This document shows positions 6,272 through 25,536 of a DNA stretch of 34,385 nucleotides, piece by piece. The notes below the pieces were generated by a model. It saw nothing but the letters and a program-made list of their open reading frames with translations. It did no database searches and had not been told where the DNA came from. The position numbers and the translations under genes are program-made. The stretch comes from Chloroflexota bacterium. GTDB taxonomy: Bacteria > Chloroflexota > Limnocylindria > Limnocylindrales > CSP1-4. How positions within the stretch are numbered: the stretch's first letter is position 1; each line of letters opens with the position of its first letter. The DNA lies in the NCBI GenBank assembly GCA_015661135.1, contig JACVXW010000007.1, positions 3,062-37,446 of the forward strand, in the 5' to 3' direction.

Positions 6272-6997
6272 TCAGGACGGCCGGAGCCACCAACCAGCGG
6301 TGGGCGGCGATGCGCGCCGGGTCAGCCTGACCAGCAGGCCGGCCACGAGACCGGCCACGAACCCGCCGATGTGGGCGAAGAATGCCACCCCGCCGTGCGC
6401 TGCCACCGCGCCGAGCGAAGCCGCGCCATCGAGGAGCTGGAGGAGGAACCAGTAGCCGAGGACGATGAGCGCGGGCACTTCGATCAGCTGGTAGAAGAAC
6501 CCCAGAAAGACGAAGGTCAGGATCCGGGCCCGCGGGTACAGCACGATGTACGCGCCGAGCGTGGCCGCGATCGCGCCCGACGCTCCGATCAGCGGGATTT
6601 CCGAGGCCGGATCCACCCAGACCTGGGCGAGTGTCGCGGCCAGGCCGCCGAGGAGGTAGAAGCCCAGGAACGGCAGGCGACCGAGCCGGTCCTCGATGTT
6701 GTTGCCGAAGATCCACAGGAACAGCAGGTTGCCCACGATGTGCCACCAGCCACCGTGCAGGAACATGCTGGCGAATGCGCCGGTGGCCGCGCCGCCCAGG
6801 TCGCCGGAGCCGGCCAGGGCTGCCGAGATCCGGGCCGGCACAGCGCCCCATGTCTTGAAGAACTGTCCGAGCGCCTCCGCACCGCCCGACGCCTCGATCG
6901 CAAGTTCCAACCCGAAGACGGCGACGCAGGCGCCGATCAGCCCGAGCGTCACGACCGGCCGTCGGCGCGTGGGGTTCGCGTCGCGGAGCGGAATCAC
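6272..6997 (-). CDS. Rhomboid family intramembrane serine protease
   Basis: HGGWWHIVGN, catalytic GASG and AHIGG motifs; MIPLRD N-terminus. GTGA overlap with the upstream gene. Confidence 0.92.
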   Translation of the reverse strand: MIPLRDANPTRRRPVVTLGLIGACVAVFGLELAIEASGGAEALGQFFKTWGAVPARISAALAGSGDLGGAATGAFASMFLHGGWWHIVGNLLFLWIFGNNIEDRLGRLPFLGFYLLGGLAATLAQVWVDPASEIPLIGASGAIAATLGAYIVLYPRARILTFVFLGFFYQLIEVPALIVLGYWFLLQLLDGAASLGAVAAHGGVAFFAHIGGFVAGLVAGLLVRLTRRASPPTAGWWLRPS

Positions 6998-9255: not shown

Positions 9256-9320
9256 GCAAGCCTCTGCCAGGTCTGGGCGGGGTGGCCGGGGCCGGGATTA
9301 TCGCACGAGGGCCGGGGGGT

Positions 9321-9668
9321 TCAGCCCCCCGGAGACGAACCCCGGAAGCGAATCGTGACGCGGATCTCGGTGACGCTCGCGCCGGCCGGGGATGCCCGGA
9401 ACGCGTCCGCCAGTTGGCGGCTGTGGAGTCGCAGCTCCTGAGCCACGATCGGGGCGTCCGCCTCCACGAGCAGAACCGAGCCCTCGATCCGTGTGGCCCG
9501 GCAGGCACCGTGGGCGGCCGGGGCCCGCTCCGCGACGATCGCGTCGAACGTGGCGACGGCGCGAGCCCGGCGGAGCTCGTCGGCCAGGCCCAGGCGAGCC
9601 GCCGCGTCCGGGATCAGGTCGCCGATCCGGGACATCGGGCCGCGCCGGCGTCGGGGCTCCTCGGTCAC
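9321..9668 (-). CDS. dciA: DUF721/DciA-family protein
   Basis: MSRIGDLI..LGL..GSVLLVEADAPIVAQELRL pattern; lies directly after recF, as in the actinobacterial dnaA-dnaN-recF-DUF721 order; GTGA overlap. Confidence 0.75.
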   Translation of the reverse strand: MTEEPRRRRGPMSRIGDLIPDAAARLGLADELRRARAVATFDAIVAERAPAAHGACRATRIEGSVLLVEADAPIVAQELRLHSRQLADAFRASPAGASVTEIRVTIRFRGSSPGG

Positions 9669-10858
9669 CGTACCGCCGCCAGCGACCCTGCCGCGGCTGC
9701 ACCATCGGCGGCGGTCGGGCCATCCAGCGTGGCGCCCTCGGATGCCGGATCAACCCTCCAGGTGGTGGCGATTCGACGAAGGGCAGGGTCGAGGTCCTCG
9801 AGCGTCGTGGTGGTCACAAACGCCTGCGGGAGCTCGGCAATCCGCCGGACGAGGTGGGCTCGCCGGTCCGGGTCCAGCTCCGAGAAGACGTCGTCCAGGA
9901 GAAGGAGAGGCGGTCGGCCGTCGTGGGCGGTGAGGAGATCCAGCTCCGCGAGCTTGAAGGCCAGGATGGCTGTTCGCTGCTGGCCGCGGGAGGCGAACGT
10001 CGCCAGGTCACGGCCGTCCAGGACGAACGACAGGTCGTCGCGATGCGGGCCCACCAGCGTGGACCCGTTCCATGCCTCCTTGTCCGCCGTCTCGACGAGG
10101 CGCCGGGCCAGGGCCTCGCGGGGTGTCTCCCCGGCCCCGGCGGGTGCGTTCGTCTCGTAGCGCAGCCGCAGGGAGGCCTGGGCGGCCTCCTCAGGCGCGA
10201 TCTCGGCGTGGGCGGCACCCAGGGCCGGTCCGAGCTCGTGGAGCAGCTGGAGGCGGGCAGTCACGATGGCCCCGCCGGCGTCCAGGAACGGCTGGTCCCA
10301 GTAGCGAAGGTCGGCGCGCTCCGCCCGCTCCTCGCGGATTGCCCGGAGCAGCCCGTTGCGCTGCTGGAGGGCGCGGCCGTACGTCGAGAGGGCGGCGGCG
10401 TAGCCGGGCGATCGGCTCGCCGCGATGCGGTCGATGGCCGTCCTCCGGAGCGATGGGGAGCCGGCGACCAGGAGCATCTCCTCCGGCGCGAAGATGACGA
10501 TCCGGAGGACGGCGGCGAGGGTCGCGGGTCGCCGGGCCACGCCGTTCACCCGGATCCGCTTCCGGCCGCCGGCCGTGGCCGTGGGGCTCCCGGGCCGAAC
10601 GAGCGCGATGTCGACGGTATCGGCGCCCACGGTGCCCTCCACCCGAGCCAGGTCCGAGCCCCACCGGATCAGCTCGGTGTCCGTCGTGGTCCGATGCGAG
10701 TGCCCCCAGGCAAGGAGGACGATGGCCTCGAGGAGACTGGTCTTGCCAGCGGCGTTCGGACCCCAGACGAGCTGCGGCCCCGGCCCGAAGGAGGCCTCGA
10801 GCGCGCCGTACCCGCGAAGGTCGGCGAGGCGGATCGACGCGAGCGTGGCGACCCTCAG
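9665..10858 (-). CDS. recF: DNA replication/repair protein RecF (probable CTG start)
   Basis: The frame is open 72 codons upstream of the ORF-track start and encodes Walker A GPNAAGKTSLLEAI. Also GPHRDDL, SRGQQRT and LLLDDVFSELD. Confidence 0.92.
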   Translation of the reverse strand: MRVATLASIRLADLRGYGALEASFGPGPQLVWGPNAAGKTSLLEAIVLLAWGHSHRTTTDTELIRWGSDLARVEGTVGADTVDIALVRPGSPTATAGGRKRIRVNGVARRPATLAAVLRIVIFAPEEMLLVAGSPSLRRTAIDRIAASRSPGYAAALSTYGRALQQRNGLLRAIREERAERADLRYWDQPFLDAGGAIVTARLQLLHELGPALGAAHAEIAPEEAAQASLRLRYETNAPAGAGETPREALARRLVETADKEAWNGSTLVGPHRDDLSFVLDGRDLATFASRGQQRTAILAFKLAELDLLTAHDGRPPLLLLDDVFSELDPDRRAHLVRRIAELPQAFVTTTTLEDLDPALRRIATTWRVDPASEGATLDGPTAADGAAAAGSLAAVR

Positions 10859-11973
10859 GAAGTGGTACGGACCGGCATCACGACGTGGACGTACTGGTCG
10901 TCGCCGATCGGCTTGAAGACACCGGGGGCCAGTGGGCCCTGGAGTTCGATGGCGAACTGCTCCGCGCCGACATTCGTCAGGACGTCCGCCAGGTACTTGG
11001 CGTTGAACGCAATGGTGGTCCCGTCGCCTTCCACCACCGCCTCGACCTGGCCAACGTGATCGCCCACCTCGGCATTGGCGCTGACCGTGATCCCGGCCGA
11101 GCCATCCGAGCCGAACTGGAGCTTGACGATGTTGGCGGATTCGTGAGCGATGAGGGCGGCGGGCCGGACGGCACGCAGGAGCTCCTCGCGATCGAGGATC
11201 GCCCGGGTGGTGTGCGCCTTGGGCATGACCGTCTGGTAGTTCGGGAACTGGCCGTCGATGAGTCGGCTGACGATATCCACGCCCTCGAGATGGAAGAGGA
11301 TCTGGTTGCGGGCCTGGGCAAGGACGATCTCGACCGGCTCATCCGTGTCCGACAGGACGCGCATCAGCTCGTTCAGGGCGCGCGCCGGCACGACCACGCT
11401 CGTCTCCGCAACGGCATCGAGAATCGGGATCGTCTTCACCGCGATCCGGTAGTTGTCGGCCGCGGCGAGCGTCAGGCTGTCCCCTTCGAATTTCGCGAGG
11501 ACGCCGGTGAGGATGGGGCGGGCTTCGTCCGTGGCCGCCGCGAAGGCTGTCTCGCCGAGCGCCTGGCGGAGGACGTTCTGGGCAATCCTCGTGGTGGGTC
11601 GTTCGCCGGTTGCCTGGATGGCCGGGAACTCATCCGCGTCAATCCCCTTGATGTGCGACTCGAACCGGCCGCAACGGATATCCAGCGTCTCGTTCGTCCC
11701 GAGCTCGAGGTCGATGCGATCCCCACCCTGGAGGGAGTTCACCAGGTCCGTCAGAAGCTTTGCCGGCACCGTCGTGGCGCCGTCCGATTCGATCTTGCCG
11801 GGTACCCAGTAGGTGATCCCGATCTCGAGATTGGTGGCGGTTAACTTGAGGCCGGCGTCCTCCGTGCGGAGCAGGACGTTGGCAAGCACGGGTAGCGTGC
11901 TGCGCGCAGAGACGGCGCGACTGACCACGGACAGGCCGCGCGCCAGGTTCTCCTGCATGACCGAAAGCTTCAC
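10855..11973 (-). CDS. dnaN: DNA polymerase III beta sliding clamp
   Basis: 372 aa; ATNLEIGI, SRLIDGQFPNY and C-terminal VVMPVR; downstream of dnaA. Confidence 0.97.
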   Translation of the reverse strand: MKLSVMQENLARGLSVVSRAVSARSTLPVLANVLLRTEDAGLKLTATNLEIGITYWVPGKIESDGATTVPAKLLTDLVNSLQGGDRIDLELGTNETLDIRCGRFESHIKGIDADEFPAIQATGERPTTRIAQNVLRQALGETAFAAATDEARPILTGVLAKFEGDSLTLAAADNYRIAVKTIPILDAVAETSVVVPARALNELMRVLSDTDEPVEIVLAQARNQILFHLEGVDIVSRLIDGQFPNYQTVMPKAHTTRAILDREELLRAVRPAALIAHESANIVKLQFGSDGSAGITVSANAEVGDHVGQVEAVVEGDGTTIAFNAKYLADVLTNVGAEQFAIELQGPLAPGVFKPIGDDQYVHVVMPVRTTS

Positions 11974-12478
11974 GTCGATTCCACTCCACAGCGGGTGCGT
12001 TGACGGGCGAGTCTGATGGTACGGGCGCGCGACATGGTCGGATGGGCGGGGGCGCGCTCGCGGGCGCCATCCCGGGGGGCGCTACCGATCGAGCCGCCGC
12101 GTCCGGGCGGGGCGTTCGGGCCCCGGTCCGGCCGTCCGGTTCACTGTGTATCTTCCTCCATTCTCAACGACTCGTCATCATCGTCATCATGCTGTTGATA
12201 CGGTGGACGGCCATGCTCGATCCTGTTCGTCTTGACCGTGGGTGACCCGGCCCGCCGGTGTGGAATTCGCGTCCCCGGCCCCAGCTCGTCGGTGCATCGC
12301 CAGGGACCGGCTGTGGATGGCGCACGGACCCTCGCGTTCCGGCCGCCACAGCGTCCACGCTCGGGGACCGTCAGCGCACGCCCGGCCTCCCCCCGGGCCG
12401 CTCTCAACGGCGCTTCCCCACTGCCACCGCCGCGGTTGTCCACCACCACCGACTCCGGTGGAGGGCGGGTAGCCGGCC
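11974..12478. other. Probable chromosomal replication origin (oriC)
   Basis: Non-coding dnaA-dnaN spacer with many degenerate DnaA boxes (TTGTCCACC 12436-12444; CCATCCACA on minus 12312-12320; AATTCCACA on minus 12259-12267; GCGTCCACG 12351-12359). Tandem boxes at 12193-12210 abut a trinucleotide run (12172-12190) and a locally AT-richer patch. Confidence 0.8.
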
Positions 12479-13795
12479 TCAGTCGCAGGCGTGGAGGACC
12501 GTCGAGTGGTCTCGCCCGCCGAGCTCCGCGCCGATCCGGAGGAGTGAGACGTCCGTCTCCGCGCGCATGAGGAACATCGCGATCTGGCGCGGCACCACGA
12601 TGACCTTGTCCCGCTTCTGGCCCTTGAGGGCGTCCAGGCCCACGCCGTAGTAGTCCGACACGGCCTTGACGATCCGTTCCGGGGTGATCTGGCGCTTCTT
12701 GGGGTTGTACAGGACGTTCGACAGGACCGCCTGGGCCAGCTCGATCGAGATCGGCATGGCACCCATCGACGCGTAGGCGACGATGCGGTTGAGCGCACCC
12801 TCGAGCTCGCGGATGTTGCTGACGACCTTGCGGGCGATGAACTCGATGACGTCCGAGGTGATCGGCACCCCGCCCTCCTCGGCCTTGGCCCGGAGGATCG
12901 CGATCCTGGTCTCGAGGTCCGGGGCGGTGAGGTCGGCGATCAGACCCCACTCGAAGCGGCTCCGAAGCCGCTCCTCGAGGGTCAGGATCGCCTTCGGCGG
13001 GCGGTCGGACGACAGCACGATCTGCTTGCCATCTTCGTGGATCGCGTTGAACGTGTGGAAGAACTCCTCCTGGGTCCGCTCCTTGTCCGCGATGAACTGG
13101 ATGTCGTCGATGAGGAGGAGGTCGATCCGCCGGTAGCGGGCCCGGAACTCGTCGATCTTGCCCTGCTGGATCGACGTGATGAACTCGTTGGTGAACTTCT
13201 CCGACGTGGCGTAGACGACCCGCTTCCGCGGAAACTTGGCCGCGACCTGGTTCCCGATGGCGTGCATCAGGTGGGTCTTGCCCAGGCCGACCCCGCCGTA
13301 CAGGAAGAGCGGGTTGTAGGCGTGGCCGGGACGCTCGGCCACGGACAGGCTGGCGGCGTGGGCGAGGCGGTTGGCCGAGCCGACGATGAAGTTGGCGAAC
13401 GTGTAGCGGGCGTTGATGTTCGTCGAGCCGCCGTCCCCGCCGACCCGGGTGGCCTCCACCCGGACGTGCTGCGAGCTAGGTGTGGCGACCGGCCGTTCGG
13501 GCAGGGTCGCCTGCGCCTCGGCTTCGGCTGCCTCGGCGGCCACCTCCGGGCTCGTCCCGACGACGAAGTCCACGAGGACGCTGTAGCCGACGATCCGCGC
13601 GAGCGTCTGGGAGATCAGCGATCGATACCGAGTCTCCAGCCAGTCCTTCGCGAATGCGTTCGGGACGGCGATCCGAAAGCGGTTGTCGTCGACATCCACG
13701 AGCGTGGTGTCACGCAGCCAGGTCTCGAAGTTCGCCGGGGAGAGCGACACCTGGAGCTCCCCGAGGGCAGCGCGCCAGACCTGCTTCGCGTCCAT
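12479..13795 (-). CDS. dnaA: Chromosomal replication initiator DnaA; C-terminus truncated in this sequence
   Basis: YNPLFLYGGVGLGKTHL, LLIDDIQF, RLRSRFEWGL, NIRELEGAL and GGRDHSTVLHA motifs. Stops right after HACD. Start is ATG 13795 (alternative GTG 13813). Confidence 0.97.
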   Translation of the reverse strand: MDAKQVWRAALGELQVSLSPANFETWLRDTTLVDVDDNRFRIAVPNAFAKDWLETRYRSLISQTLARIVGYSVLVDFVVGTSPEVAAEAAEAEAQATLPERPVATPSSQHVRVEATRVGGDGGSTNINARYTFANFIVGSANRLAHAASLSVAERPGHAYNPLFLYGGVGLGKTHLMHAIGNQVAAKFPRKRVVYATSEKFTNEFITSIQQGKIDEFRARYRRIDLLLIDDIQFIADKERTQEEFFHTFNAIHEDGKQIVLSSDRPPKAILTLEERLRSRFEWGLIADLTAPDLETRIAILRAKAEEGGVPITSDVIEFIARKVVSNIRELEGALNRIVAYASMGAMPISIELAQAVLSNVLYNPKKRQITPERIVKAVSDYYGVGLDALKGQKRDKVIVVPRQIAMFLMRAETDVSLLRIGAELGGRDHSTVLHACD

Positions 13796-13975
13796 TCGTC
13801 GATGACGGCTCACTGTGGGAGGGGCTGTATGGATGGGCGGCCGGAACGGAAATCGCGGGTGTCGTCGCGCCGGGACCGCCGGGGAGCTGGGTCGAGTCGA
13901 GGAGCGGCTGGGAGGGTCTGCCTCACCCCTCGAGCCGGGTCTCTTGCGGGCTGACCGAGGTGCCGAGGGTCACGA

Positions 13976-14004
13976 AAGATAGCACCGCGCACCGGGCCTC
14001 GCAA
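13976..14004 (-). promoter_or_regulatory. Sigma70-type promoter for dnaA
   Basis: TTGCGA-17 nt-TATCTT on the minus strand, with an extended -10 (TGC-TATCTT). Confidence 0.7.
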
Positions 14005-14013
14005 GGTAATTCT

Positions 14014-14036
14014 GCGATACTCCATGGGAGTATCGC
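14014..14036. promoter_or_regulatory. Perfect inverted repeat between the divergent dnaA and rpmH promoters (candidate operator)
   Basis: GCGATACTCC-ATG-GGAGTATCGC, 10-bp arms. Confidence 0.45.
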
Positions 14037-14070
14037 CCCCAGGGTGCCTGCTGCCGCCGCTCCCGCGCGT

Positions 14071-14100
14071 TTGACACCCCTTCTCGCCCGGACCTATCAT
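14071..14100 (+). promoter_or_regulatory. Sigma70-type promoter for the rpmH operon
   Basis: TTGACA-18 nt-TATCAT. Confidence 0.75.
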
Positions 14101-14216
14101 CCCCCGGACATGAACGCGCCAACGCGCCGATGGGCGCACGGCGCGTTTGCGTGCCTTCAGGGGTTCACCACCGACTCGACCCCGAGGCCCGATGAAGAGG
14201 GATCCGCGAAACCCCG

Positions 14217-14351
14217 ATGAAGCAGACCTACCAGCCCAAGAAGCGACATCGTGCCAAGGAGCACGGCTTCCGCGCCCGGATGAAATCCACGGGCGGCCGC
14301 CGCGTTCTCGCCGCACGACGAGCACGCGGCCGGAAGCGCCTGACGGTCTGA
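14217..14351 (+). CDS. rpmH: 50S ribosomal protein L34
   Basis: Manual translation [44 protein letters not shown] (44 aa); divergent from dnaA. Confidence 0.97.
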
Positions 14352-14386
14352 CGGACGGTCGCGGCCGGCATCAGCCGCGTCTGGTG

Positions 14387-14719
14387 ATGCTCTCGCGCCC
14401 GCAGGACTTCGCGGCGCTTCAGGAGCGTGGGACGATGCGATCCCACCCCATCCTCGCCGCACGGATCGCTCGAACGGACCTCGAGACCACGCGGTTCGGG
14501 TTCGCGACCGGCCGGGCACTCGGCTCGGCGGTCGTCCGGAATCGCATTCGGCGACGACTTCGCGAGGAACTGAGGGTGATGGCACCGATGTTTCAGCCGG
14601 GCTGGGACATCCTGTTGATCGCCCGGCCGGCGATCGTGGATGCCGGGCAGGACACACTGGCGGCGGCGCTCCGCCGGCTGCTCAGCCGGGACGGCGTCCT
14701 TGGAGGAAGCGAATCTTGA
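14387..14719 (+). CDS. rnpA: Ribonuclease P protein component (start ATG 14387, or possibly CTG 14348)
   Basis: RFGFATGRALGSAVVRNRIRRRLRE (RNR motif); lies between rpmH and yidD. Confidence 0.93.
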   Translation: MLSRPQDFAALQERGTMRSHPILAARIARTDLETTRFGFATGRALGSAVVRNRIRRRLREELRVMAPMFQPGWDILLIARPAIVDAGQDTLAAALRRLLSRDGVLGGSES

Positions 14720-14922
14720 AGCGAATCGGGATCGGGTTGATCCACCTGTACCGCTTCGCGTTCGCCTGGCTCCCGTCCGCCTGTCGTTTTGAACCAACCT
14801 GCTCACGCTATACCGAACAGGCCATCGATCGGTATGGACTCCTGCGCGGCTCCTGGATGGGCGCTCGTCGGATCGCCAGCTGCCACCCCGGCAATCCCGG
14901 CGGGTACGACCCCGTCAGATGA
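14716..14922 (+). CDS. yidD: Membrane protein insertion efficiency factor YidD
   Basis: CRFEPTCSRY and CHPGNPGGYDPV motifs; TTGA overlap with rnpA. Confidence 0.95.
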   Translation: MKRIGIGLIHLYRFAFAWLPSACRFEPTCSRYTEQAIDRYGLLRGSWMGARRIASCHPGNPGGYDPVR

Positions 14923-14941
14923 ACGAGGACCCCACCGCGTG

Positions 14942-16117
14942 ATGCTCCGCAGCCGTCTCATCCGGCTCGTGCCGCTCCTCCTGCTCATAGGGCTGGCGCT
15001 CGTCGTGGCCGGCTGCATCGGGGGAAACGCGTCCCTGGCCCCGGGCGTGACGCCGTCGCCGACGGCCACGCCGCCTGCCGCCATCCCGCTCGTCCCCGCC
15101 GAATTGAAGGCAGACCCGGTCAGCCCGTTTGCCTGGCTGTTCAACCCGATCTTCCAGGGGTTCTTCATCACCCTTGCGGTATTTGACCGGTGGACGAGCA
15201 ACATCGCGATCGCGATCGTGCTCCTCACCCTCCTGATCAAGGTCGTCCTCATCCCGCTCTTCCGGCGGCAGATCGTCTCGACGCGCCGAATGCAGCTCAT
15301 CGCTCCCGAGGCGAACGAGATCAAGCGCCGCTACAAGGGCGATCGGATGAAGATCCAGCAGGCCACGGCGCAGCTCTACAAGGAGCGTGGCGTCTCCGCG
15401 GTCGGCTGCCTGCCGATCTTCCTGCAGATGGTCCTGCTGATCCCGCTCTACACGGTCTTCAGCCAGGGCCTCACCAACTTCAACCCGCAGGCAATGCTCG
15501 ACGTCTTCGGCTTCCGCATCCTCGACCTCGGGTGCGACGCCCTCCCCATCGTCCTGTCGAGCGGCCACGTCGACAACCCGTGTCTCAACCCGTTCGCCTA
15601 TGGCGTCAACTGGGGCGTGCCGGAGGTCTTCGTTTCGTGGGGCCAGCCCGGGACCATCCTGTCCGGCCTGAGCCTCCTCGCGATCATATCGTCGCTGTTC
15701 CAGCTGGTCGCGTCGCGGATGACCGTCCCGCCGCCGAGCCCTTCGGACGACCAGAACATCAAGACGCAGCGCCAGATGGCGATCTTCCTGCCCTTCATCT
15801 CCCTGATCTACGGGAGCATCCTCCCGGCCGGCCTGTTCCTGTACTGGATCGTCTCCACGATCTTCTCGATCGTCCAGCAGTACCTGATCATCGGCTGGGG
15901 CGGGATGTTCCCGCTCTTCGGCTGGACACCACGCTTTGCCGTGGGCCACGAACCGCGCTTCCCGGTCGCCGCACCCACGGCGCCGACCCCTTCCTCGCGT
16001 GCGGCGGGAGCGCCCGCGCGAGCCAACCCGGACCGGTCCAGCCTTGACCGATCCGCAGCTGCCCAGGCCACCATCCGCCAGCGGGGCCGGCAGGGCCGAC
16101 GCGGCAGACGACGATAG
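14942..16117 (+). CDS. yidC: Membrane protein insertase YidC/Oxa1 family, with lipoprotein-like signal peptide
   Basis: AIVLLTLLIK, GCLPIFLQM and PAGLFLYWIVS motifs; N-terminal hydrophobic stretch ending VVAGC. Confidence 0.93.
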   Translation: MLRSRLIRLVPLLLLIGLALVVAGCIGGNASLAPGVTPSPTATPPAAIPLVPAELKADPVSPFAWLFNPIFQGFFITLAVFDRWTSNIAIAIVLLTLLIKVVLIPLFRRQIVSTRRMQLIAPEANEIKRRYKGDRMKIQQATAQLYKERGVSAVGCLPIFLQMVLLIPLYTVFSQGLTNFNPQAMLDVFGFRILDLGCDALPIVLSSGHVDNPCLNPFAYGVNWGVPEVFVSWGQPGTILSGLSLLAIISSLFQLVASRMTVPPPSPSDDQNIKTQRQMAIFLPFISLIYGSILPAGLFLYWIVSTIFSIVQQYLIIGWGGMFPLFGWTPRFAVGHEPRFPVAAPTAPTPSSRAAGAPARANPDRSSLDRSAAAQATIRQRGRQGRRGRRR

Positions 16118-16135
16118 AGATGAGTGACGACTGAC

Positions 16136-17239
16136 ATGAGTGCGTACCAGGAATTCACCGGCAAGTCCGTCGAGGAGGCCCTCCGTCTCGCGCGCGAAGC
16201 CTTCGGGGCCGGCCTTGACGACCTCGACTTCGAGATCCTGACACCCGGTAGCCGCGGCGTTCTGGGCATGGGTGCGGAGCCCGCCCGAATCCTCGCCGCG
16301 CCTCGATCCGAGCTCGGCGGGGCCGCCCCGAAGCGCGACGCCGCGTCCGCCCGACCGTTGCCGCCGCCCCCGGCCCGCGAAGACCGCGGTGACCGCCCGT
16401 CATTCGGCGACCGGGACCGTGGTCCGCGCCGGGATGACCGTGGCCCGCGCCGCGACGACCGACCCCGCGACGACCGACCCCGCGACGACCGACCCCGCGA
16501 CGACCGACCCCGCGACGACGACCGCGGCCCGCGACCGGACGCGCCATCACCCGCGGAACCCCGCGAGGATCGCAGCGACCGGCCTGCCTTCGGCGACCGT
16601 GACCGTGACCGGGACCGCGGCCCGCGCCGGGACGACCGCGGCCCGCGGCCCGACACTGCCGACCGCGGCTCGCGCCGCGCCCCCGACCTCACGGACCGCG
16701 AAGCCGCGGAGCTCGCCGCAGGGCGGGGCTCCGTCGCATCGGAGCGGGCTGAGCTGGAGGCCGCCGAGGCGTCGCCTGAGGCGCTTGCGGCCGGCAAGGT
16801 CATCCTCGAGAAGCTCCTCGACCTGATGGGCTTCAGCGTGGCGGTCACCGTCGAAGCCGCCGAGACGAGTCGCCTGAACGTGACCGGGGAGGGCGACGAG
16901 CGAGAGGCGCTCGGGGCCCTGATCGGCCGCAAGGGAGAGCGCCTCTCAGCCCTCCAGCACCTCGTCAACCTGATGCTTTCCAAGGAGATGGGCGGCTGGA
17001 CTCGGGTGCTCGTGGATGTCGAGGACTACCGCGGGCGGCGCGAGCGCCAGCTCCGCGAGATCGCCGAGCGGGCGGCCCAGCGGGTCGTCGAGACAGGCAA
17101 GATGCTCCAATTGGAGCCGATGCCGGCGCTCGAGCGAAGGTGGGTGCACCTGGCGCTCCGCAGTCACCCCGACGTCTCGACCCAGTCGATCGGCGAGGAG
17201 CCGAACCGGCGGATCGTGGTGCTGCCTCACTCGAGCTGA
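16136..17239 (+). CDS. jag: RNA-binding protein Jag/KhpB/EloR (Jag_N, KH, R3H)
   Basis: FTGKSVEEA, LIGRKGERLSALQHL, DVEDYRGRRE and LEPMPALERRWVH motifs; follows yidC. Confidence 0.93.
   Translation: MSAYQEFTGKSVEEALRLAREAFGAGLDDLDFEILTPGSRGVLGMGAEPARILAAPRSELGGAAPKRDAASARPLPPPPAREDRGDRPSFGDRDRGPRRDDRGPRRDDRPRDDRPRDDRPRDDRPRDDDRGPRPDAPSPAEPREDRSDRPAFGDRDRDRDRGPRRDDRGPRPDTADRGSRRAPDLTDREAAELAAGRGSVASERAELEAAEASPEALAAGKVILEKLLDLMGFSVAVTVEAAETSRLNVTGEGDEREALGALIGRKGERLSALQHLVNLMLSKEMGGWTRVLVDVEDYRGRRERQLREIAERAAQRVVETGKMLQLEPMPALERRWVHLALRSHPDVSTQSIGEEPNRRIVVLPHSS
16451..16519 (+). repeat. 15-bp tandem repeat (CGCGACGACCGACCC x4 plus partial) encoding RDDRP in the Jag linker
   Basis: Four perfect copies at 16451-16510, read directly. 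Confidence 0.95.
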
Positions 17240-19487: not shown

Positions 19488-19940
19488 TCAGGAGCTCGAG
19501 GCGGTCGCGCCGTCCGCCTGGCAGGTCGGGCACAGCCCGAAGAGCTCCAGGCGATGCGCGTCGATCTGGTAGCCGGTCTCGGTCGCGATTCGGCCGACGA
19601 CCCCGGCCAGCCCGGCGTCGTCCACATCGGTCGCCCGCCCACACCTCGCGCAGACGACGTGGTGGTGGTGGGCAGCCGGCTCGCACGCGATATACGCATG
19701 GTCGCCTGACGGGAGGTCGATCCGCTCGATCGCACCGACGCCTTCGAATACCTCGATCGTCCGGAAGATCGTGGCGCGGGCGATGCCCAGCCGCCGCATC
19801 GCCGCATCGCCGACGAGCTCGGCGGCCGTGAAGTGGCCCTGCCGCGACGCGATCAGGTCGGCCACCGCCCGGCGCGGACCCGTGAGCCGGTATCCGGCCC
19901 GGTCCAGCATGACGAGCGGCGATTCGACCACGGCATCCAT
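19488..19940 (-). CDS. Fur-family metalloregulator
   Basis: GYRLTGPRR, RATIFRT, HHHHVVCARCG and GLCPTC motifs. Likely start ATG 19940, 6 nt after a TATCCT -10 element. Confidence 0.9.
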   Translation of the reverse strand: MDAVVESPLVMLDRAGYRLTGPRRAVADLIASRQGHFTAAELVGDAAMRRLGIARATIFRTIEVFEGVGAIERIDLPSGDHAYIACEPAAHHHHVVCARCGRATDVDDAGLAGVVGRIATETGYQIDAHRLELFGLCPTCQADGATASSS

Positions 19941-19970
19941 CGCGACAGGATACGCGGCGCATACTTCGAC

Positions 19971-19990
19971 CTGATGAGCCAAGAGATCAG
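19971..19990. promoter_or_regulatory. Candidate operator in the fur/DMT divergent intergenic region
   Basis: CTGAT-N10-ATCAG inverted repeat overlapping the expected -35 of fur. Confidence 0.3.
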
Positions 19991-20130
19991 CCAGAAACAC
20001 CCTGCGAGGCTGGGCGACCGGCGCCGGCGTGTGCCGGGGTTCGCCCGCTGCGACGCGGACGGAGCGGAGGCTCGCAACCGGCGCTCCTGACCGGACGCCG
20101 ACCGAAGCCCGCTCTACCGGAGATCGTCTC

Positions 20131-21141
20131 GTGTTTTCCACCCCGTCCAGCCCGTCCATCAAGCCCCGTCGCGCCGCCGTCTGGCTCGTGCTGGCCGCCG
20201 CCGCTTGGGGCCTCGGGACGGTCATCAGCAAGCGCGCCGTCGAGGAGATCCCGCCACTCAGCCTGCTCGTCATCCAGCTCACGATCAGCGTGGTGGCGCT
20301 CTGGATCGGGCGGGGCCTCGTCGGGCGGGGCCTATTCGGGCGGGGCCTATTCGGGCGGGCCAGCGATCCGGCGGACCGTCCGGCGGATTCCGCCGCGCTC
20401 GATCGCCTGGGCCTGCTTAATCCCGGGGCCTCCTACGCCCTCAGCCTCGTGGGGCTGACGGGGATCACGGCCAGCCTGTCCGTGCTCCTTTGGGCCATCG
20501 AGCCGGTCCTGATCCTTGCCATCGCCTGGTGGTGGCTCCGCGAGCCCGTCACGCCGCGACTCGTGGTCCTCTCGGCGACCGCGGTTGCCGGGATGGCGCT
20601 CGTGGTCTGGTCCCCCGGCCTCGGCGGCCAGGTCGTGGCCATCCTCGCGACGGTCGCCGGGATCGCCTGCTGTGCGGTCTATACCGTGCTGGCCCGCCGA
20701 CGCATCGGTGACGTTCCGTCCACGCTCCGCATCGTCCTCGGGCAGCAGGCCTGGGCCCTCGGGTTCGCGGCCCTGCTCCTGGGCGCGTCGGTCCTGGTTG
20801 ACGGCGTCCTCGGCGGAACCGACGCCGCCGGCATCGGTTACAGCGCAATGTTCACGGTGACGGCGCCGATCTCCGTCGAGGCCTGGGCGAGCGCCGTCGT
20901 TTCCGGTGTCGTGTACTACGCCCTCGCCTATGTGTTCTACCTCAGCGGCCTTCGGCACGTTCCCGCGTCACGCGCAGCCGCCGCGTTCTACCTCATTCCG
21001 CTGTTCGGCGTGGCCGGCGGCGTGGCGCTGCTCGGGGACCGTCTGGACCCGGGGCAGTGGCTGGGCGCGGTGGTCATCGTCGCGAGCGTCGTCGCGATCG
21101 CCCGGTCGGGCTCGACGCCAAAGGCCGCACCCGCACGCTGA
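20131..21141 (+). CDS. DMT/EamA-family transporter
   Basis: AAAAWGLGTVISK, WAIEPVL, LREP, VPASRAAAAFYLIPLFGV and LLGDRL motifs; about 10 TM segments. Start uncertain. Confidence 0.88.
   Translation: MFSTPSSPSIKPRRAAVWLVLAAAAWGLGTVISKRAVEEIPPLSLLVIQLTISVVALWIGRGLVGRGLFGRGLFGRASDPADRPADSAALDRLGLLNPGASYALSLVGLTGITASLSVLLWAIEPVLILAIAWWWLREPVTPRLVVLSATAVAGMALVVWSPGLGGQVVAILATVAGIACCAVYTVLARRRIGDVPSTLRIVLGQQAWALGFAALLLGASVLVDGVLGGTDAAGIGYSAMFTVTAPISVEAWASAVVSGVVYYALAYVFYLSGLRHVPASRAAAAFYLIPLFGVAGGVALLGDRLDPGQWLGAVVIVASVVAIARSGSTPKAAPAR
20308..20359 (+). repeat. 15-bp tandem repeat (GGGCGGGGCCTATTC-type x3 plus partial) encoding GRGL(V/F)
   Basis: Read directly; lies in a loop of the DMT protein. 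Confidence 0.85.
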
Positions 21142-21233: not shown

Positions 21234-22052
21234 GTGGCCGTCGAAGAAGTTCCGGATCTCGCCGCGATCAAGCGGCGCCAGCAGGCGACCTGGTCGGCCG
21301 GCGACTACCACAAGATCGGGACGCAGATCCTCATCGTGTCGGAGCTGCTGATCGAGGCGCTCGACGTGCGCTCGCCGGAGCGCCTCCTCGATGTCGCCAC
21401 CGGCAGTGGCAACGCCGCCCTGGCCGCCGCCCGGCGCGGGTGCACGGTCGTGGGGCTCGACTACGTTCCGGCCCTCCTGGGCCGCGCACGCCGACGCGCC
21501 GACGCGGAGGGTCTCGAGGTCGAGTTCATCGAGGGCGATGCCGAGGGACTGCCTTTCCCCGACGCGAGCTTCGACGTCGTGAGCTCCGTCTTCGGGGCCA
21601 TGTTCGCGCCGGACCAGGGGCAGACGGCCCGGGAGCTCGCCCGGGTCTGCCGACCGGGCGGTCGCATCGGCCTCGTCGCGCACACGCCCGAGGGCTTCAT
21701 CGGCCAGCTCTTCAAGACCAACGCGAAGCACGTGCCGCCGCCTGCCGGCCTGCGCTCCCCGGTCCTCTGGGGCACGGAAGATCGACTTCGGGAACTGTTC
21801 GGAGACACGCTGGCGGGCGCCACCTTCGAGCGGCGCTTCTACACGTTCCGCTACCGGTCGCCCGCCGCCTACCTGGACTACTGGCGCCGCTGGTACGGGC
21901 CCACGATTAAGGCGTTCGAGGCCGTCGGCGATGCCGGACGCGCGGCGCTCGAGGCGGACCTGCTGGATCTCATCGCCAGGTTCAACCGGGCCGACGACGG
22001 CACGATGGTCGTGCCGAGCGAGTACCTGGAGGCCGTCCTCATTCGCCGGTAA
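21234..22052 (+). CDS. Class I SAM-dependent methyltransferase
   Basis: LLDVATGSGNAAL, GDAEGLPFPDASFDVV and RVCRPGGRI motifs. Confidence 0.92.
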   Translation: MAVEEVPDLAAIKRRQQATWSAGDYHKIGTQILIVSELLIEALDVRSPERLLDVATGSGNAALAAARRGCTVVGLDYVPALLGRARRRADAEGLEVEFIEGDAEGLPFPDASFDVVSSVFGAMFAPDQGQTARELARVCRPGGRIGLVAHTPEGFIGQLFKTNAKHVPPPAGLRSPVLWGTEDRLRELFGDTLAGATFERRFYTFRYRSPAAYLDYWRRWYGPTIKAFEAVGDAGRAALEADLLDLIARFNRADDGTMVVPSEYLEAVLIRR

Positions 22053-22070
22053 GGCGCGGCGCGGGTGAGT

Positions 22071-22443
22071 TGGTGGAGATGGGGGAGAGTCGAACTCCCC
22101 GTCCAGAGCCCTTCGGCAGGAACCACTACGAGCGTGTCCGATCGTTTTCGTCGACCGTCCGGGCGGGGATCGGCACTCTCCCGGGTGGTCCAGTCACGTG
22201 TCTCTAGATCGAGCTTGCTCCCGGACTACGCGACGCTCGTCCGGGCTGCAGCCCCGCTGAATGACGCTTCCACGGCCCACGGGACGGAGGCCGCTTCCAC
22301 GCTCACCTTACCGCCTAAGCGGCGAGGGCGAGAGTCGACTGCTTGTTGGCAGTTGCTTCGATTTGCCGCCTGTTTAACGAGGCCTGACGGCACCTCGGCT
22401 CGCATTTCCTGTCTTCCGGACCCTGTCGAAACCACGCATCCCC
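22071..22443 (-). ncRNA. ssrA: tmRNA; tag peptide (A)ANKQSTLALAA at 22350-22315
   Basis: 5' GGGGATG pairs with 3' CATCTCC-ACCA including G3-U; TTCGAC near the 5' end; TTCGACT T-loop; tag ORF ending LALAA-TAG; smpB nearby. Confidence 0.97.
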
Positions 22444-22477
22444 ACAGGACCAAGACGCGCTCGGGCGTCTCTCCCAG

Positions 22478-22506
22478 AGTCTAGCCCAGGTTGCGCGATC
22501 GGCCAA
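22478..22506 (-). promoter_or_regulatory. Promoter for ssrA
   Basis: TTGGCC-17 nt-TAGACT on the minus strand, back to back with the -10 (TAGGAT, 22519-22524) of the urease-like genes. Confidence 0.6.
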
Positions 22507-22530
22507 TCTTGGGGCGAGTAGGATTCCCCG

Positions 22531-23196
22531 ATGCGACTGACGGCCTGGGAGGAGGAGCGCATGCTCGTCTTCAGCGCGGCCGAGCTGGCACGCCGCCACC
22601 GCGACGCCGGGCTGCTCCTCAACGCGCCTGAGGCTGTCGCGCTCATCTGCGACGCCATGTTCGAGGCGGCACGGGCCGGGGCCACCTTCGCCGACGTCGA
22701 GGCCGCCGGGCGGGCCGCCGTCCAGCCGGGCGAGGCCATGCCAGGCGTCCCATCCCTGGTCGACGAGGTCCGCCTGGAGGTGCTCATCGGCGACGGGACG
22801 CGGCTCATCGTCCTGCTGGATCCACTGGGCGCGGCCGCAACCGAGCCGAACGGCCCGGGCTCGGTCACGCTGGCCACGGCCGATCTTGACGATCCGGCTG
22901 CGCACCTGGAGCGACGGCAGGTCGTGGTTCGGAGCGCATCGCGGCGCGTCATCCATGTCTCGTCGCACTTCCCGTTCCATCGGGTCAACCGGCGGCTCGA
23001 ATTCGACCGGGGGGCCGCGACGGGCTTCCGCCTGGACATTCCCGCCGGAAGCTCGGAGCGCTGGGCGCCGGGCGAAACGAGGACGGTTTCGCTCGTTCGG
23101 TATGCCGCCGAGATGCATACCGGACCGGAGATCGACCCCGAAGGCGCGCCTTCGGACCCGCCGACCGACGCCTCGACCCAAAGCGGCCCTCGATGA
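22531..23196 (+). CDS. ureAB: Fused urease gamma/beta subunit (divergent)
   Basis: Gamma part MRLTAWEEER..LNAPEAVALI..DGTRLI; beta part SSHFPFHRVN..FDR..GFRLDIPAGSSERWAPGETRTVSLV. Confidence 0.88.
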   Translation: MRLTAWEEERMLVFSAAELARRHRDAGLLLNAPEAVALICDAMFEAARAGATFADVEAAGRAAVQPGEAMPGVPSLVDEVRLEVLIGDGTRLIVLLDPLGAAATEPNGPGSVTLATADLDDPAAHLERRQVVVRSASRRVIHVSSHFPFHRVNRRLEFDRGAATGFRLDIPAGSSERWAPGETRTVSLVRYAAEMHTGPEIDPEGAPSDPPTDASTQSGPR

Positions 23197-24917
23197 CCCG
23201 CCTCTCGCGAGTCGAGCGGCTGGCTCGCTACGGACCGACGACCGGCGACCTCGTCCGGCTCGCCGACACCTCGCTCCGGATCCGGGTCCGGGAGGACCGC
23301 CAGGCGCCCGGCGACGAGCCGGTCTGGGGATACGCCAAGGACCTCCGCCTGGACATGGCCCAATCCTCGAAGGCCGGGCCGTCCCAACTCGACGCGGTGA
23401 TCGTCGGCGCGCTCGTGGTCGATCCGGTCATCGGCATCGTCAAGGCGGACATAGGGATCAAGGACGGCCGGATCGTGGGCGTGGGACGCGCCGGCAACCC
23501 GGGCATTTCCGAGGGCATCGACCTGCCGATCGGGCCGCACACGTCTCCGATCTCGGCCTACGGGCTCATCGCGACACCGGGCGCCGTGGACTCGCACGTT
23601 CACACGATCAGCCCGAACCTGATCCCGGCGGCGCTGTCCGCCGGCGTCACGACCCTGATCACGGCGGGCTTTGAGGAGCCACCGGCCGCCATGGAGCGGA
23701 CGCTGCGCGGCCTGGAGGACTGGCCGATCAACGTGGGACTCCAGGCCAGCGCCCGGGCCGCGTCTGATGCCGCCCTCGAGCCGCTCCTGGACGCGGGGGC
23801 CGTCGGCTTCAAGATTCACGAGGATTACGGGGCTTCACCGGAGCTCATCGATCACGTCCTGCGCTTCGCCGACAGGCACGACATCTCGGTCAGCCTCCAC
23901 ACGGACGGCCTGCACGAGACCGCCGAGCTGGAGGACACGGTGGCCGCGATCGCCGGGCGTACCGTCCACGCCTACCACGTGGAAGGCTCTGGCGGCGGGC
24001 ACGTGCCCGACGTCATCGCCCTCGTCCGGGAAGCAAACGTCATCTGCTCGTCCACCACGCCGACGATCCCGTGGGGCGTGAGCGCGGCGAGCGAGACGCT
24101 GGCCATGACGATGCTCAATCACGGCACGAGCTGGGCGTTGCCGGAGGACGTTGCGCTGGTCCTGGAGCGCCTCCACCCGGCGACCATGGCTGCGGAGGGT
24201 CCGCTCCACGAGCTGGGCGCAATCAGCATCGTGAACTCGGATTCGCAGGGCATGGGCCGGATCATGGAGACGGTCCGGCGGACCTTCCAGCTGGCCGACG
24301 TCATGAAGGCCTGGCGGGCGTCGGAGGCCGGGCGGACCGTCGCGGCGCTGGCCGGCCTGCCCGACGAAGGCGAAGGCGCCGTGGGCGACGACGGGGACGA
24401 CGGTGATCGAGTCCTGCGCTACCTCGCCAAGGTGACCCTGGAGCCGGCGATCACGCACGGAATCGCGGAGCACGTCGGCTCACTCGCCCCCGGCCGGATC
24501 GCCGACATCGTCCTCTGGAAGCCCGGCTGGTTCGGGGTCAAGCCGGAGCTCGTCGTGAAGGGCGGCCACCCGGCCTGGTCCCCGCTGGGTGACGGCAACG
24601 CGTCCGTGGAGCGGTCCGAGCCGACGCGCTACGCGCGCGAGTTCGCCGGCCTGCCGCACGCTGCGCCCGGGGTGTCGGTGACCTTCGTCTCCGGGGCCGC
24701 CAACCAGGAGGTGCTGCGCCGCCGCCTCGCGAGCCGACGGACATTCCTCCCGGTTGCCGGCTGCCGGGGTTTGACGCGGGCATCCCTCGCCTGGAACCGG
24801 GCGACGGCCGCGATCGAGGTGGACCCGGCCACCGGACGCGTCACGCTCGGGGGGGTGCCCGTGGAGGCGCCGCCGGCGACCGAGCTCCCGTTGAACCGGC
24901 GATACTTCCTGCGCTGA
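23193..24917 (+). CDS. ureC: Urease alpha subunit-like amidohydrolase (divergent active-site surroundings)
   Basis: YGPTTGD, KADIGIKDGRI, GRAGNP, DSHVH, GFKIHEDYG, LHTD, YHVEGSGGGH, SDSQGMGR, FGVKP and LPLNRRYF motifs; ATGA overlap. Confidence 0.88.
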   Translation: MTRLSRVERLARYGPTTGDLVRLADTSLRIRVREDRQAPGDEPVWGYAKDLRLDMAQSSKAGPSQLDAVIVGALVVDPVIGIVKADIGIKDGRIVGVGRAGNPGISEGIDLPIGPHTSPISAYGLIATPGAVDSHVHTISPNLIPAALSAGVTTLITAGFEEPPAAMERTLRGLEDWPINVGLQASARAASDAALEPLLDAGAVGFKIHEDYGASPELIDHVLRFADRHDISVSLHTDGLHETAELEDTVAAIAGRTVHAYHVEGSGGGHVPDVIALVREANVICSSTTPTIPWGVSAASETLAMTMLNHGTSWALPEDVALVLERLHPATMAAEGPLHELGAISIVNSDSQGMGRIMETVRRTFQLADVMKAWRASEAGRTVAALAGLPDEGEGAVGDDGDDGDRVLRYLAKVTLEPAITHGIAEHVGSLAPGRIADIVLWKPGWFGVKPELVVKGGHPAWSPLGDGNASVERSEPTRYAREFAGLPHAAPGVSVTFVSGAANQEVLRRRLASRRTFLPVAGCRGLTRASLAWNRATAAIEVDPATGRVTLGGVPVEAPPATELPLNRRYFLR

Positions 24918-24952
24918 ACCGGCGCGGGGTCCGGCGACGGCCGGCCGCCAGC

Positions 24953-25417
24953 TCAGCCCTTGCGCGCCTCGGCGATGTCGCGGTCCATCTGCCGCCGGGC
25001 GTCCCGCTCGGCGATGTCGCGCCGGCGGTCGTGGAGTTGCTTGCCGCGGGCCAGTCCAATCTCGACCTTGGCCCGTCCGCGCCCGTCGATGTAGACGCGA
25101 AGCGGGATCAGGGTGAGGCCCTTTGCCTTCGTCTTGCCGAGCAGCTGGTCGATCTCCATCCGGTGGAGGAGCAGCTTTCGATCGCGCTTGGCTTCATGGT
25201 TGTAGCGGCTGGCGCCTTCCCACGGGGCAATGTGGGCACCGACGAGCCAGGCCTCGGAGCGCTCGATCCGGGCGAACGAGTCACTGAGGTTGAGCTTGCC
25301 GGCCCGGAGCGACTTGATCTCCGTCCCGGTCAGCACGATCCCGGCCTCGATCGTGTCCTCGATCGAGTATTCGTACCTGGCCCTCCGGTTGAGGGCGATC
25401 GTCTTCTCCTCGCCCAT
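24953..25417 (-). CDS. smpB: SsrA-binding protein SmpB
   Basis: NRRARYEY, EAGIVLTGTEIKSLR, RKLLLH and ARGKQLHDRR motifs. Confidence 0.97.
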   Translation of the reverse strand: MGEEKTIALNRRARYEYSIEDTIEAGIVLTGTEIKSLRAGKLNLSDSFARIERSEAWLVGAHIAPWEGASRYNHEAKRDRKLLLHRMEIDQLLGKTKAKGLTLIPLRVYIDGRGRAKVEIGLARGKQLHDRRRDIAERDARRQMDRDIAEARKG

Positions 25418-25495
25418 GGCTCAGGCTCCAATCGATGGGGCAGGGGGGCCGGTTGCCGGGTCACGCCCGCCAGGTCGGCGAGTCGGTCCCGGATT

Positions 25496-25536
25496 CGCAC
25501 GAACGCCGGCCCTTTCGGACCGGCGTTCGACTTGCG
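25496..25536 (-). terminator. Strong GAAA-tetraloop hairpin without a U-tract, between the small ORF and smpB
   Basis: CGCA-agt-CGAACGCCGGTCC-GAAA-GGGCCGGCGTTCG-TGCG on the minus strand. Confidence 0.5.

Follow-up and report, generated by a model that had tools for sequence, protein, structure and literature searches.

A conserved short-loop urease-like enzyme in Limnocylindria and its possible action on substituted ureas

Background

Urease is treated as an enzyme with one substrate that depends on nickel and on chaperones, and its gene ureC commonly serves as a marker for ureolysis. A urease-like gene pair, ureAB and a ureC-like gene, in a Chloroflexota bacterium of the class Limnocylindria raises the question of whether a member of this family that keeps the catalytic residues and has lost part of the substrate pocket is still a urease. 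The pair lies in a stretch of 34,385 nucleotides (NCBI GenBank assembly GCA_015661135.1, contig JACVXW010000007.1, positions 3,062 to 37,446 of the forward strand), which is referred to as the window and to which all coordinates apply. The host is a soil or groundwater bacterium represented by a metagenome-assembled genome of 2.03 Mb with about 70% G+C and 65% completeness, in which the window is contig C41.

Based on alignments and a tree, the UreC-like protein is placed in a deep, uncharacterised 'short-loop' branch of the urease family, and the gene pair encodes a real, conserved and probably active enzyme. The preferred reading of its function is an accessory-independent amidohydrolase of ureido compounds (N-substituted ureas), to which a rough probability of 0.45 is assigned.

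Results

The gene pair and its catalytic residues

The two genes and the motifs of the catalytic subunit are as follows.

22531..23196, + strand: ureAB, fused urease gamma/beta-like small subunit of 221 amino acids (Pfam Urease_gamma at residues 1-98, E 3.6e-25; Urease_beta at residues 124-193, E 1.8e-20)
23193..24917, + strand: ureC-like catalytic subunit of 574 amino acids (Pfam Urease_alpha and Amidohydro_1)
23325..23339, + strand: WGYAK (residues 45-49) in place of FGGGK, N-terminal domain
23589..23603, + strand: DSHVH (D133-H137) with the metal-ligand histidines H135 and H137, invariant in the three aligned groups and in the 30-sequence alignment
23661..23681, + strand: TAGFEEP (residues 157-163), the shortened loop after strand 152-158, in place of the GGGTGPA...TPG loop
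23805..23825, + strand: GFKIHED (G205-D211) with Lys207, His209 and Asp211, invariant
23895..23906, + strand: LHTD (L235-D238) with the ligand His236, invariant
23973..23987, + strand: YHVEG (Y261-G265) with the ligand His262 followed by Val, where canonical ureases have Thr in the joint alignment
24105..24128, + strand: flap MTMLNHGT (residues 305-312), with Asn309 at the Cys319 position, the flap His kept as H310 and the next His replaced by Gly
24237..24260, + strand: SDSQGMGR (S349-R356) with the ligand Asp350 and Gly353 at the Ala363 position, found in 120 of the 120 best matches

The gamma, beta and alpha domains by which the urease structural family is recognised are all present, and the fold was confirmed by a structural model and a structure search. 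The pair is predicted to encode a functional metalloenzyme with the urease fold that consists of two chains, gamma/beta and alpha. The small subunit scored 189 bits against the NCBIfam model PRK13192 for bifunctional gamma/beta subunits, which is under the cut-off of 243. Since the stop codon of ureAB overlaps the start codon of ureC (ATGA at 23193-23196), the two genes are translationally coupled.

All six ligands of the di-metal centre are present (H135, H137, K207, H236, H262 and D350). Lys207 is at the position of the carbamylated bridging lysine of ureases, and H209, D211, H310 and R326 correspond to the catalytic residues H219, D221, H320 and R336 in the numbering of Klebsiella aerogenes urease, from which the roles were transferred. 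The best PDB match of the UreC-like protein was Helicobacter pylori UreB (1e9y_B, E 2.3e-145). In the alignment with this protein, a gap of 11 residues in the query directly follows ITAGFEEPPAA, and the gap against Helicobacter mustelae UreB2 is also of 11 residues. Compared to H. pylori UreB, the flap reads MTMLNHG instead of MLMVCHH, and SDSQA is changed to SDSQG. An AlphaFold2 model built from a 30-sequence alignment reached a pLDDT of 86.2 and a pTM of 0.92. In this model, residues 159-163 alone link strand 152-158 to helix 164-173, and a Foldseek comparison with solved ureases gave TM values of 0.90-0.93 at 39-42% identity. The substituted residues W45, Y47, F160 and Y212 are bulky and could refill the space left by the loop.

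An initial annotation, made from the letters of the window and their open reading frames (ORFs), had described the metal-ligand motifs as intact, the loop from 23661 as about 11 residues shorter, and the flap, SDSQGMGR and WGYAK segments as altered. All of these descriptions were confirmed in the ORF 23193-24917.

Conservation of the short loop

Orthologues were collected with a word-indexed protein search, from which the best 120 of 8000 scored candidates, 72-100% identical to the query, were kept. The 119 of these with a length of at least 540 amino acids were aligned jointly with 120 actinobacterial 'alpha 2' proteins and four canonical representatives. All 119 orthologues have the six metal ligands and H209, D211, H310 and R326 unchanged, and the same is true of this catalytic set in 120 of 120 'alpha 2' relatives. 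Between fixed anchors, the loop has a length of 9 residues in all 119 orthologues, 16 in all 120 'alpha 2' proteins and 20 in the four canonical sequences. The residues that distinguish the altered pocket are fixed or almost fixed: G159, F160, E162, P163, W45, Y47 and G311 occur in every orthologue, and N309 and Y212 in 117 of 119 each. Among the best 120 matches, WGYAK was found in 112 and WGYGK in one, while the remaining seven were unmatched by the search pattern.

The initial annotation had also considered that raw data or sister genomes might reveal a canonical loop, which would make the short one a deletion artefact. Logan contigs from two runs of different studies, one of which may be the window's own source sample, span nucleotides 23227-23768 and 23062-23806 with 0 differences and 0 gaps. 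No insertion or deletion is listed for four sequencing runs. The short loop is therefore neither chance nor an assembly artefact, because it has the same length in all orthologues and the contigs of two studies are free of insertions and deletions. Pairwise ratios of nonsynonymous to synonymous substitution rates (dN/dS) against 11 orthologues were 0.11-0.29, and the gene is under purifying selection.

These data bear on the possibility that the protein is inactive, either as the product of a decaying gene or as a pseudoenzyme, or that its loop is an assembly error. Urease-like representatives without metal ligands do exist (e.g. P0145, P0150 and P0178), and disrupted copies were found in the genomes G062 and G087. 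Nevertheless, the constant ligands and loop length, the intact coupled ORFs, the identical contigs across the loop and the dN/dS values have already largely refuted this explanation, and it is considered very improbable.

Place in the urease family

When 1.84 billion cluster representatives were searched in full with HMMER, 454 proteins were obtained at E <= 1e-30. A quick IQ-TREE analysis of 34 full-length rows, with SH-aLRT support only, grouped the shortened-loop proteins in one starred clade (100*, 20 rows) apart from the canonical ureases. Within this clade, the grouping (P0123,(P0121, Limnocylindria)) was starred at 99*, and in a further tree a group of 24 rows carrying TAGFEEPP was starred at 99*. 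The loop was shortened stepwise, from 20 residues in canonical ureases to 16 in the actinobacterial group and 9 in the group of the window.

Throughout the wider clade, Gly occupies the Ala363 position and the ligand His is followed by Val or Ile. No part of this clade conserves the flap Cys, and its replacement by Asn alone therefore says little. Of the changes that had been taken as distinctive, the loop deletion, WGYAK and the Cys-to-Asn exchange stand, but the Ala363-to-Gly exchange does not, as it is common to the wider clade.

The family models give a matching picture. The NCBIfam subfamily model PRK13207 was the sole urease-alpha model passed (632 vs. 354 bits), and the urease-alpha equivalog models were all missed: TIGR01792 with 547 vs. 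680 bits, PRK13206 with 548 vs. 907, PRK13309 with 509 vs. 1001 and PRK13985 with 505 vs. 1083. The marks of a canonical nickel urease, namely the loop supplying the Ala167 carbonyl, Ala363 and the flap Cys-His-His, are missing, and the flap triad is Asn-His-Gly. Every source that names the protein calls it urease subunit alpha. No characterised member of the clade was found in open-access papers and preprints. The starred clade, the failed equivalogs and the variant residues fixed across the 119 orthologues thus uphold the earlier proposal of an uncharacterised urease subfamily.

Separately, many full-length urease-alpha-like proteins among the representatives are devoid of the bridging Lys and/or several ligands (P0145, P0150, P0178, P0185, P0187, P0192, P0196, P0210 and others). 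An example of such a ligand-poor protein is the Kitasatospora protein WP_402298092.1, which is named urease subunit alpha. By their sequences, these proteins look like urease-derived pseudoenzymes or enzymes with a different chemistry.

Accessory genes and urea transport

With the profiles TIGR00101 for ureG, PF01730 for UreF and PF01774 for UreD, 0 matches were obtained in the host's own genome, which is 65% complete. The same profiles gave 0 matches in five of five relatives carrying the gene pair with a completeness of 91-97%, in a search that did not extend to ureE and nickel importers. As a positive control, three other Chloroflexota genomes gave ureG over the cut-off, within about 800 bp of ureC. 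Each carrier genome has a single strong urease-alpha match, and consequently there is no canonical urease that could lend its helpers. In the 41 sampled genomes of the family, no match to the urea transporter component UrtA (TIGR03407) exceeded the cut-off. No ureG was found in G295, a genome with a gene of the sister type described below.

A 99%-complete Chloroflexota genome (G258) has a UreC homologue that is 51% identical to the sister type and no ureG over the cut-off. It may represent another helper-free urease-like lineage.

A deiminase gene linked to the sister group

A scan of metagenome contigs with P0121, the nearest outgroup representative (57% identical, Euzebyaceae-type), provided 48 sister loci. 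The sister UreCs share TAGFEEPP and, except for P0121-type rows, also WGYAK, G311 and G353. They have Val, Thr or Ser at position 309 and Trp at position 212. At 22 of these 48 loci, the urease-like genes are adjoined by a PF04371 gene of the Porphyromonas-type deiminase family (E about 1e-103). In 17 cases this gene is placed between ureAB and ureC and overlaps or abuts its neighbours, in three it lies directly before ureC at a contig end, and in two it is upstream of ureAB. The deiminase-linked loci form one subgroup on the tree, and since several are near-copies of each other, the 22 loci are not independent events. A number of sister loci appeared to encode fused UreABC ORFs of 700-770 amino acids, which were rejected as ORF-calling artefacts, with ureAB in another frame.

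PF04371-family enzymes convert a guanidino group to a ureido group. Five of the PF04371 proteins, which resemble agmatine deiminases, scored 296-321 bits, the three co-operonic ones among them 314-321, against the agmatine deiminase equivalog cut-off of 381.8. Published homologues are described in PMC13625781 as acting on agmatine and on longer guanidino-polyamines. The next step of the pathway, the hydrolysis of the carbamoyl group, is assigned in PMC12283126 to AguB, the recently found AguY or putrescine carbamoyltransferase, and this paper does not contain the word 'urease'. A ureAB-deiminase-ureC operon was not found described in open-access papers and preprints.

Further genes accompany some sister cassettes, as the urease-like gene sets are called below. 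In L089-type and P0121-type relatives, these are genes for a class-III aminotransferase, an aldehyde dehydrogenase, an IclR regulator and an ABC transporter, a set that agrees with further metabolism of an amine product. Amidohydro_1/3 genes lie beside sister cassettes in G062, L087 and L120. The genome G062 belongs to the window's own family and carries a sister-type cassette at another site, with a PF04371 gene 1.8 kb away. At this locus (L139, G062:C1:2142000-2157000, about 6570-10398), ureAB begins 8-11 bp after the end of an Amidohydro_3 gene, and the PF04371 gene lies upstream in divergent orientation. The ureC of this locus has one frame disruption near locus position 9390, which may be a sequencing error, and in G087 ureC is in two pieces.

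The host genome itself has a PF04371 gene on contig C118, which is 73% identical to that of G062 and lies among unrelated genes. At this locus (L135, G000:C118, 1159-6144), the gene is flanked by a SufBD gene on one side and a penicillin-amidase-family gene on the other, and an ornithine-cyclodeaminase-family gene lies farther out. The longest ORF of the PF04371 gene is extended by about 110 residues at the N-terminus. AguB (TIGR03381) was not found over the cut-off in any of the five carriers, three of which have nitrilase-family matches of about 265 bits, in a search that did not include AguY and putrescine carbamoyltransferase.

Genomic setting

The cassette of the window is bordered by the two genes of the trans-translation system.

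22071..22443, - strand: transfer-messenger RNA (tmRNA) gene ssrA, left border of the cassette (Rfam RF00023, 127 bits; ARAGORN tag ANKQSTLALAA)
24953..25417, - strand: smpB, right border of the cassette (ORF, with a 68-72% identical protein in five of five relatives)

The ORF at 24953-25417 is assumed to be smpB from sequence recognition and its pairing with the tmRNA. The surrounding core region also holds dnaA, dnaN, yidC, jag, ftsX, prfB and secA. Gene order was counted in 64 of 81 related sources, namely those with ureC called by the ORF caller. A downstream gene was called in 58 of these 64; smpB follows ureC directly in 26 and with one gene in between in 22. The tmRNA gene lies upstream of the cassette in 15 rows of the related sources.

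Among five cassette-free relatives, the distance between smpB and the tmRNA gene is 368 and 458 bp in two, and no urease-like or MFS genes were found in the five smpB loci. Due to this spacing, the cassette can be regarded as an insertion or deletion exactly between the trans-translation partners. Of the 41 family genomes sampled, 15 carry the cassette, and in a class sample of 81 genomes it was seen in no other family. The urease-like pair is inherited vertically within the family at its position between ssrA and smpB. This pattern of a single fixed site and recurrent loss is in line with a dispensable function in nitrogen scavenging. A classical tmRNA-gene island was rejected as an explanation, as the cassette is on the 5' side of ssrA and not at its 3' end.

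The neighbouring genes were considered as partners or substrate clues and set aside. An EamA transporter, a class-I methyltransferase, a Fur-family regulator, an S41 protease and FtsX are housekeeping or uninformative genes. A proline-racemase-family gene between ureC and smpB in about one third of the related loci is not part of the cassette, because it adjoins smpB in the cassette-free locus L083 too. An upstream MFS gene was present in 28 loci and adjoins the cassette in 5 of 15 carriers of the family sample. It also occurs in three non-carriers, once with an internal stop and once at 40% identity, and matched no NCBIfam family. This link is too weak for a partner.

The only Rfam match in the whole window is the tmRNA gene on the opposite strand, so that no riboswitch was found upstream of the pair, and no promoter-like site was found in 22000-25500.

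Elsewhere in the window, dnaN, dnaA, yidC and jag lie together at 10855-17239, and a partial match to SMC_N (RecF/RecN/SMC-type) under the Pfam cut-off is located at 9668-10642, just before dnaN. Because of this cluster and the SMC_N-type match, the window is probably at the chromosomal replication origin. The Fur-family regulator at 19488-20282 (- strand; Pfam FUR at residues 129-247) has an N-terminal extension of about 128 residues in its longest ORF, and its true start may be further downstream.

Discussion

Comparison with known systems

The subunit domains, the fold, the six ligands, the substrate His, the Asp, the flap His and the Arg are shared with canonical UreABC enzymes (K. aerogenes 2KAU, Sporosarcina pasteurii 4UBP and H. 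pylori 1E9Y). In contrast, the canonical loop after barrel strand 2 is longer by 11 residues, the flap is CHH instead of NHG, Ala363 replaces Gly, HTEG replaces HVEG and FGGGK replaces WGYAK. Furthermore, ureD, ureF and ureG were not found in the carrier genomes searched, and the equivalog scores are too low.

The actinobacterial 'alpha 2' clusters of the Streptomyces SCO5525-5526 type belong to the same wider clade and share Gly at the Ala363 position and Val or Ile after the ligand His. They are about 46-47% identical to the UreC-like protein and differ in their loop of 16 instead of 9 residues and in having neither WGYAK nor TAGFEEPP nor Asn309. This 16-residue-loop group comprises proteins of Streptomyces, Thermobispora, Streptosporangium and others, which are named urease subunit alpha (one 'alpha 2'). 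No biochemical study of the group was found in open-access papers and preprints. Streptomyces also has a canonical urease cluster with ureFGD. A ureDGFCBA cluster, SCO1231-1236, is listed in the literature. Unlike Streptomyces, the Limnocylindria carriers have no canonical cluster alongside. Clusters of only ure(AB)C, with a fused gamma/beta gene followed by the alpha gene and without accessory genes, are reported for S. coelicolor and S. avermitilis in a 2008 paper (PMC2492869).

H. mustelae UreA2B2 (PDB 3QGA) has the urease fold, and its ligand His is followed by Ile, a position at which the protein of the window has Val and canonical enzymes have Thr. In contrast to the protein of the window, with which it is only about 40% identical, UreB2 belongs to a true urease, retains the whole loop and reads MLMTCHHL in the flap. 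This helper-free iron urease shows that self-assembly is possible in the urease fold. As a separate observation, Val or Ile after His262 might serve to mark metal centres that are helper-free or contain no nickel.

AguB and AguY, with a nitrilase fold and an amidase-signature fold, respectively, share the proposed reaction and the partnership with an agmatine-deiminase-family enzyme, which is seen here in the sister group. They have no sequence or fold relation to the urease-like enzyme, whose activity is predicted from genes.

Proposed mechanism

As no UreDFG was found, the di-metal centre may self-assemble, as in other carbamyl-lysine amidohydrolases, and the metal need not be nickel. The enzyme would attack the terminal carbamoyl (ureido) group of R-NH-CO-NH2 by the urease mechanism, and the products would be NH3 and an N-substituted carbamate decaying to R-NH2 and CO2. 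In urease, the backbone carbonyls of Ala167 and Ala363 hold the urea nitrogen that is bound to the metal, and the other nitrogen leaves as ammonia, aided by the flap His. The deletion of the Ala167 loop and the change of Ala363 to Gly would make room for R on the retained nitrogen. The changes affect exactly these two positions, and the leaving-group machinery is untouched. A new wall may be formed by the invariant E162 together with F160, W45, Y47, Y212 and N309, and a cationic chain could be bound there. For the sister group, R is probably an aminobutyl chain, from N-carbamoylputrescine or a similar carbamoyl-polyamine that the co-operonic deiminase would provide. In the window's lineage, urea may still be accepted.

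Weighing the explanations

The earlier suggestion that the substrate is an N-substituted urea gains indirect support from the deiminase gene adjoining the urease-like genes in 22 of the 48 sister loci. The PF04371 genes of G062 and of the host genome, the amine-related neighbours of the P0121 type, the missing helper genes and the lack of UrtA over the cut-off count in favour as well. Against it, PF04371 was found in the window's own lineage in only 2 of 15 carriers of the family sample and in none of three further ones (G047, G071 and G059), i.e. in 2 of 18, and never adjoins the cassette in 80 related loci. Several other points also weigh against a ureido amidohydrolase. All residues for urea hydrolysis are kept and the small urea molecule should still reach the metals. 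Urea is also met far more often by a free-living bacterium than carbamoyl-polyamines are. The deiminase-like proteins score under the agmatine deiminase equivalog cut-off and may act on a substrate other than agmatine; if this is free guanidine, the product is urea itself. In addition, the neighbours in the window are housekeeping genes that give no hint of a substrate, and the MFS gene is present upstream in only about one third of the loci.

An ordinary but divergent urea amidohydrolase, in which the loop and flap changes are neutral or kinetic tuning, the metal is acquired without helpers and internal or diffusing urea is recycled, has a substantial chance of being correct, although well short of even. 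Every catalytic and ligand residue and the fold are kept, all naming sources say urease subunit alpha, and a common substrate such as urea is simplest for a lineage in which most carriers are without a deiminase gene. There are precedents for the lack of helpers: the urease of Bacillus subtilis shows activity although no accessory genes are known for it, and the H. mustelae iron urease UreA2B2 needs no accessory proteins. The flap Cys is dispensable in K. aerogenes, and C319 variants of that urease are among the PDB structure matches. However, the protein fails all urease-alpha equivalog cut-offs, its Ala167-carbonyl loop is gone and its Ala363 position is Gly, whereas the helper-free H. mustelae UreB2 retains the full loop and the CHH flap. 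The 41 family genomes have no UrtA-type urea transporter over the cut-off, and a deiminase between the sister subunit genes makes little sense for a urease, unless the deiminase makes urea. The same di-metal hydroxide could instead hydrolyse a different small molecule with a carbonyl or imino group, for example formamide, acetamide, a carbamate ester, hydroxyurea, biuret or guanidine. The retained catalytic set, the remodelled pocket wall and the missing helper genes would allow this, and the Amidohydro_1/3 genes beside the sister cassettes hint at a multi-step breakdown of nitrogen compounds. Such a substrate is nevertheless unlikely, since no context points to these compounds and the deiminase link points to a ureido group.

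The preference for a ureido amidohydrolase over a plain urease is kept at its stated level because the deiminase is rare and never adjacent in the own lineage, urea is the commonest ureido compound and guanidine is a possible deiminase substrate. A broader proposal is that the short-loop, helper-less enzymes of the Limnocylindria lineage and of its deiminase-linked sisters, and perhaps the whole actinobacterial 'alpha 2' clade, are self-metallating ureido-amine amidohydrolases and not ureases. This generalisation is tentative and held at somewhat less than even odds.

Conclusions

A large conserved branch of the urease family keeps the chemistry but does without the chaperones and without one pocket wall, and its sister group is wired to a deiminase of guanidino groups. 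If the members of this branch are true ureases, they would be a natural case in which the urease metal centre assembles without helpers, in a lineage where no ureDFG was found. If they are instead ureido-amine amidohydrolases, the urease family would have its first physiological substrate other than urea, the conversion of N-carbamoyl-polyamines to polyamines would have one more non-homologous solution, and many 'urease' calls in soil and groundwater metagenomes would be mis-assigned. Should a substituted urea be the substrate, the reaction scope of the urease fold would widen, a new route in polyamine and guanidino-nitrogen metabolism would be added, and counts of 'urease' genes would overstate ureolysis in habitats rich in Chloroflexota and Actinomycetota.

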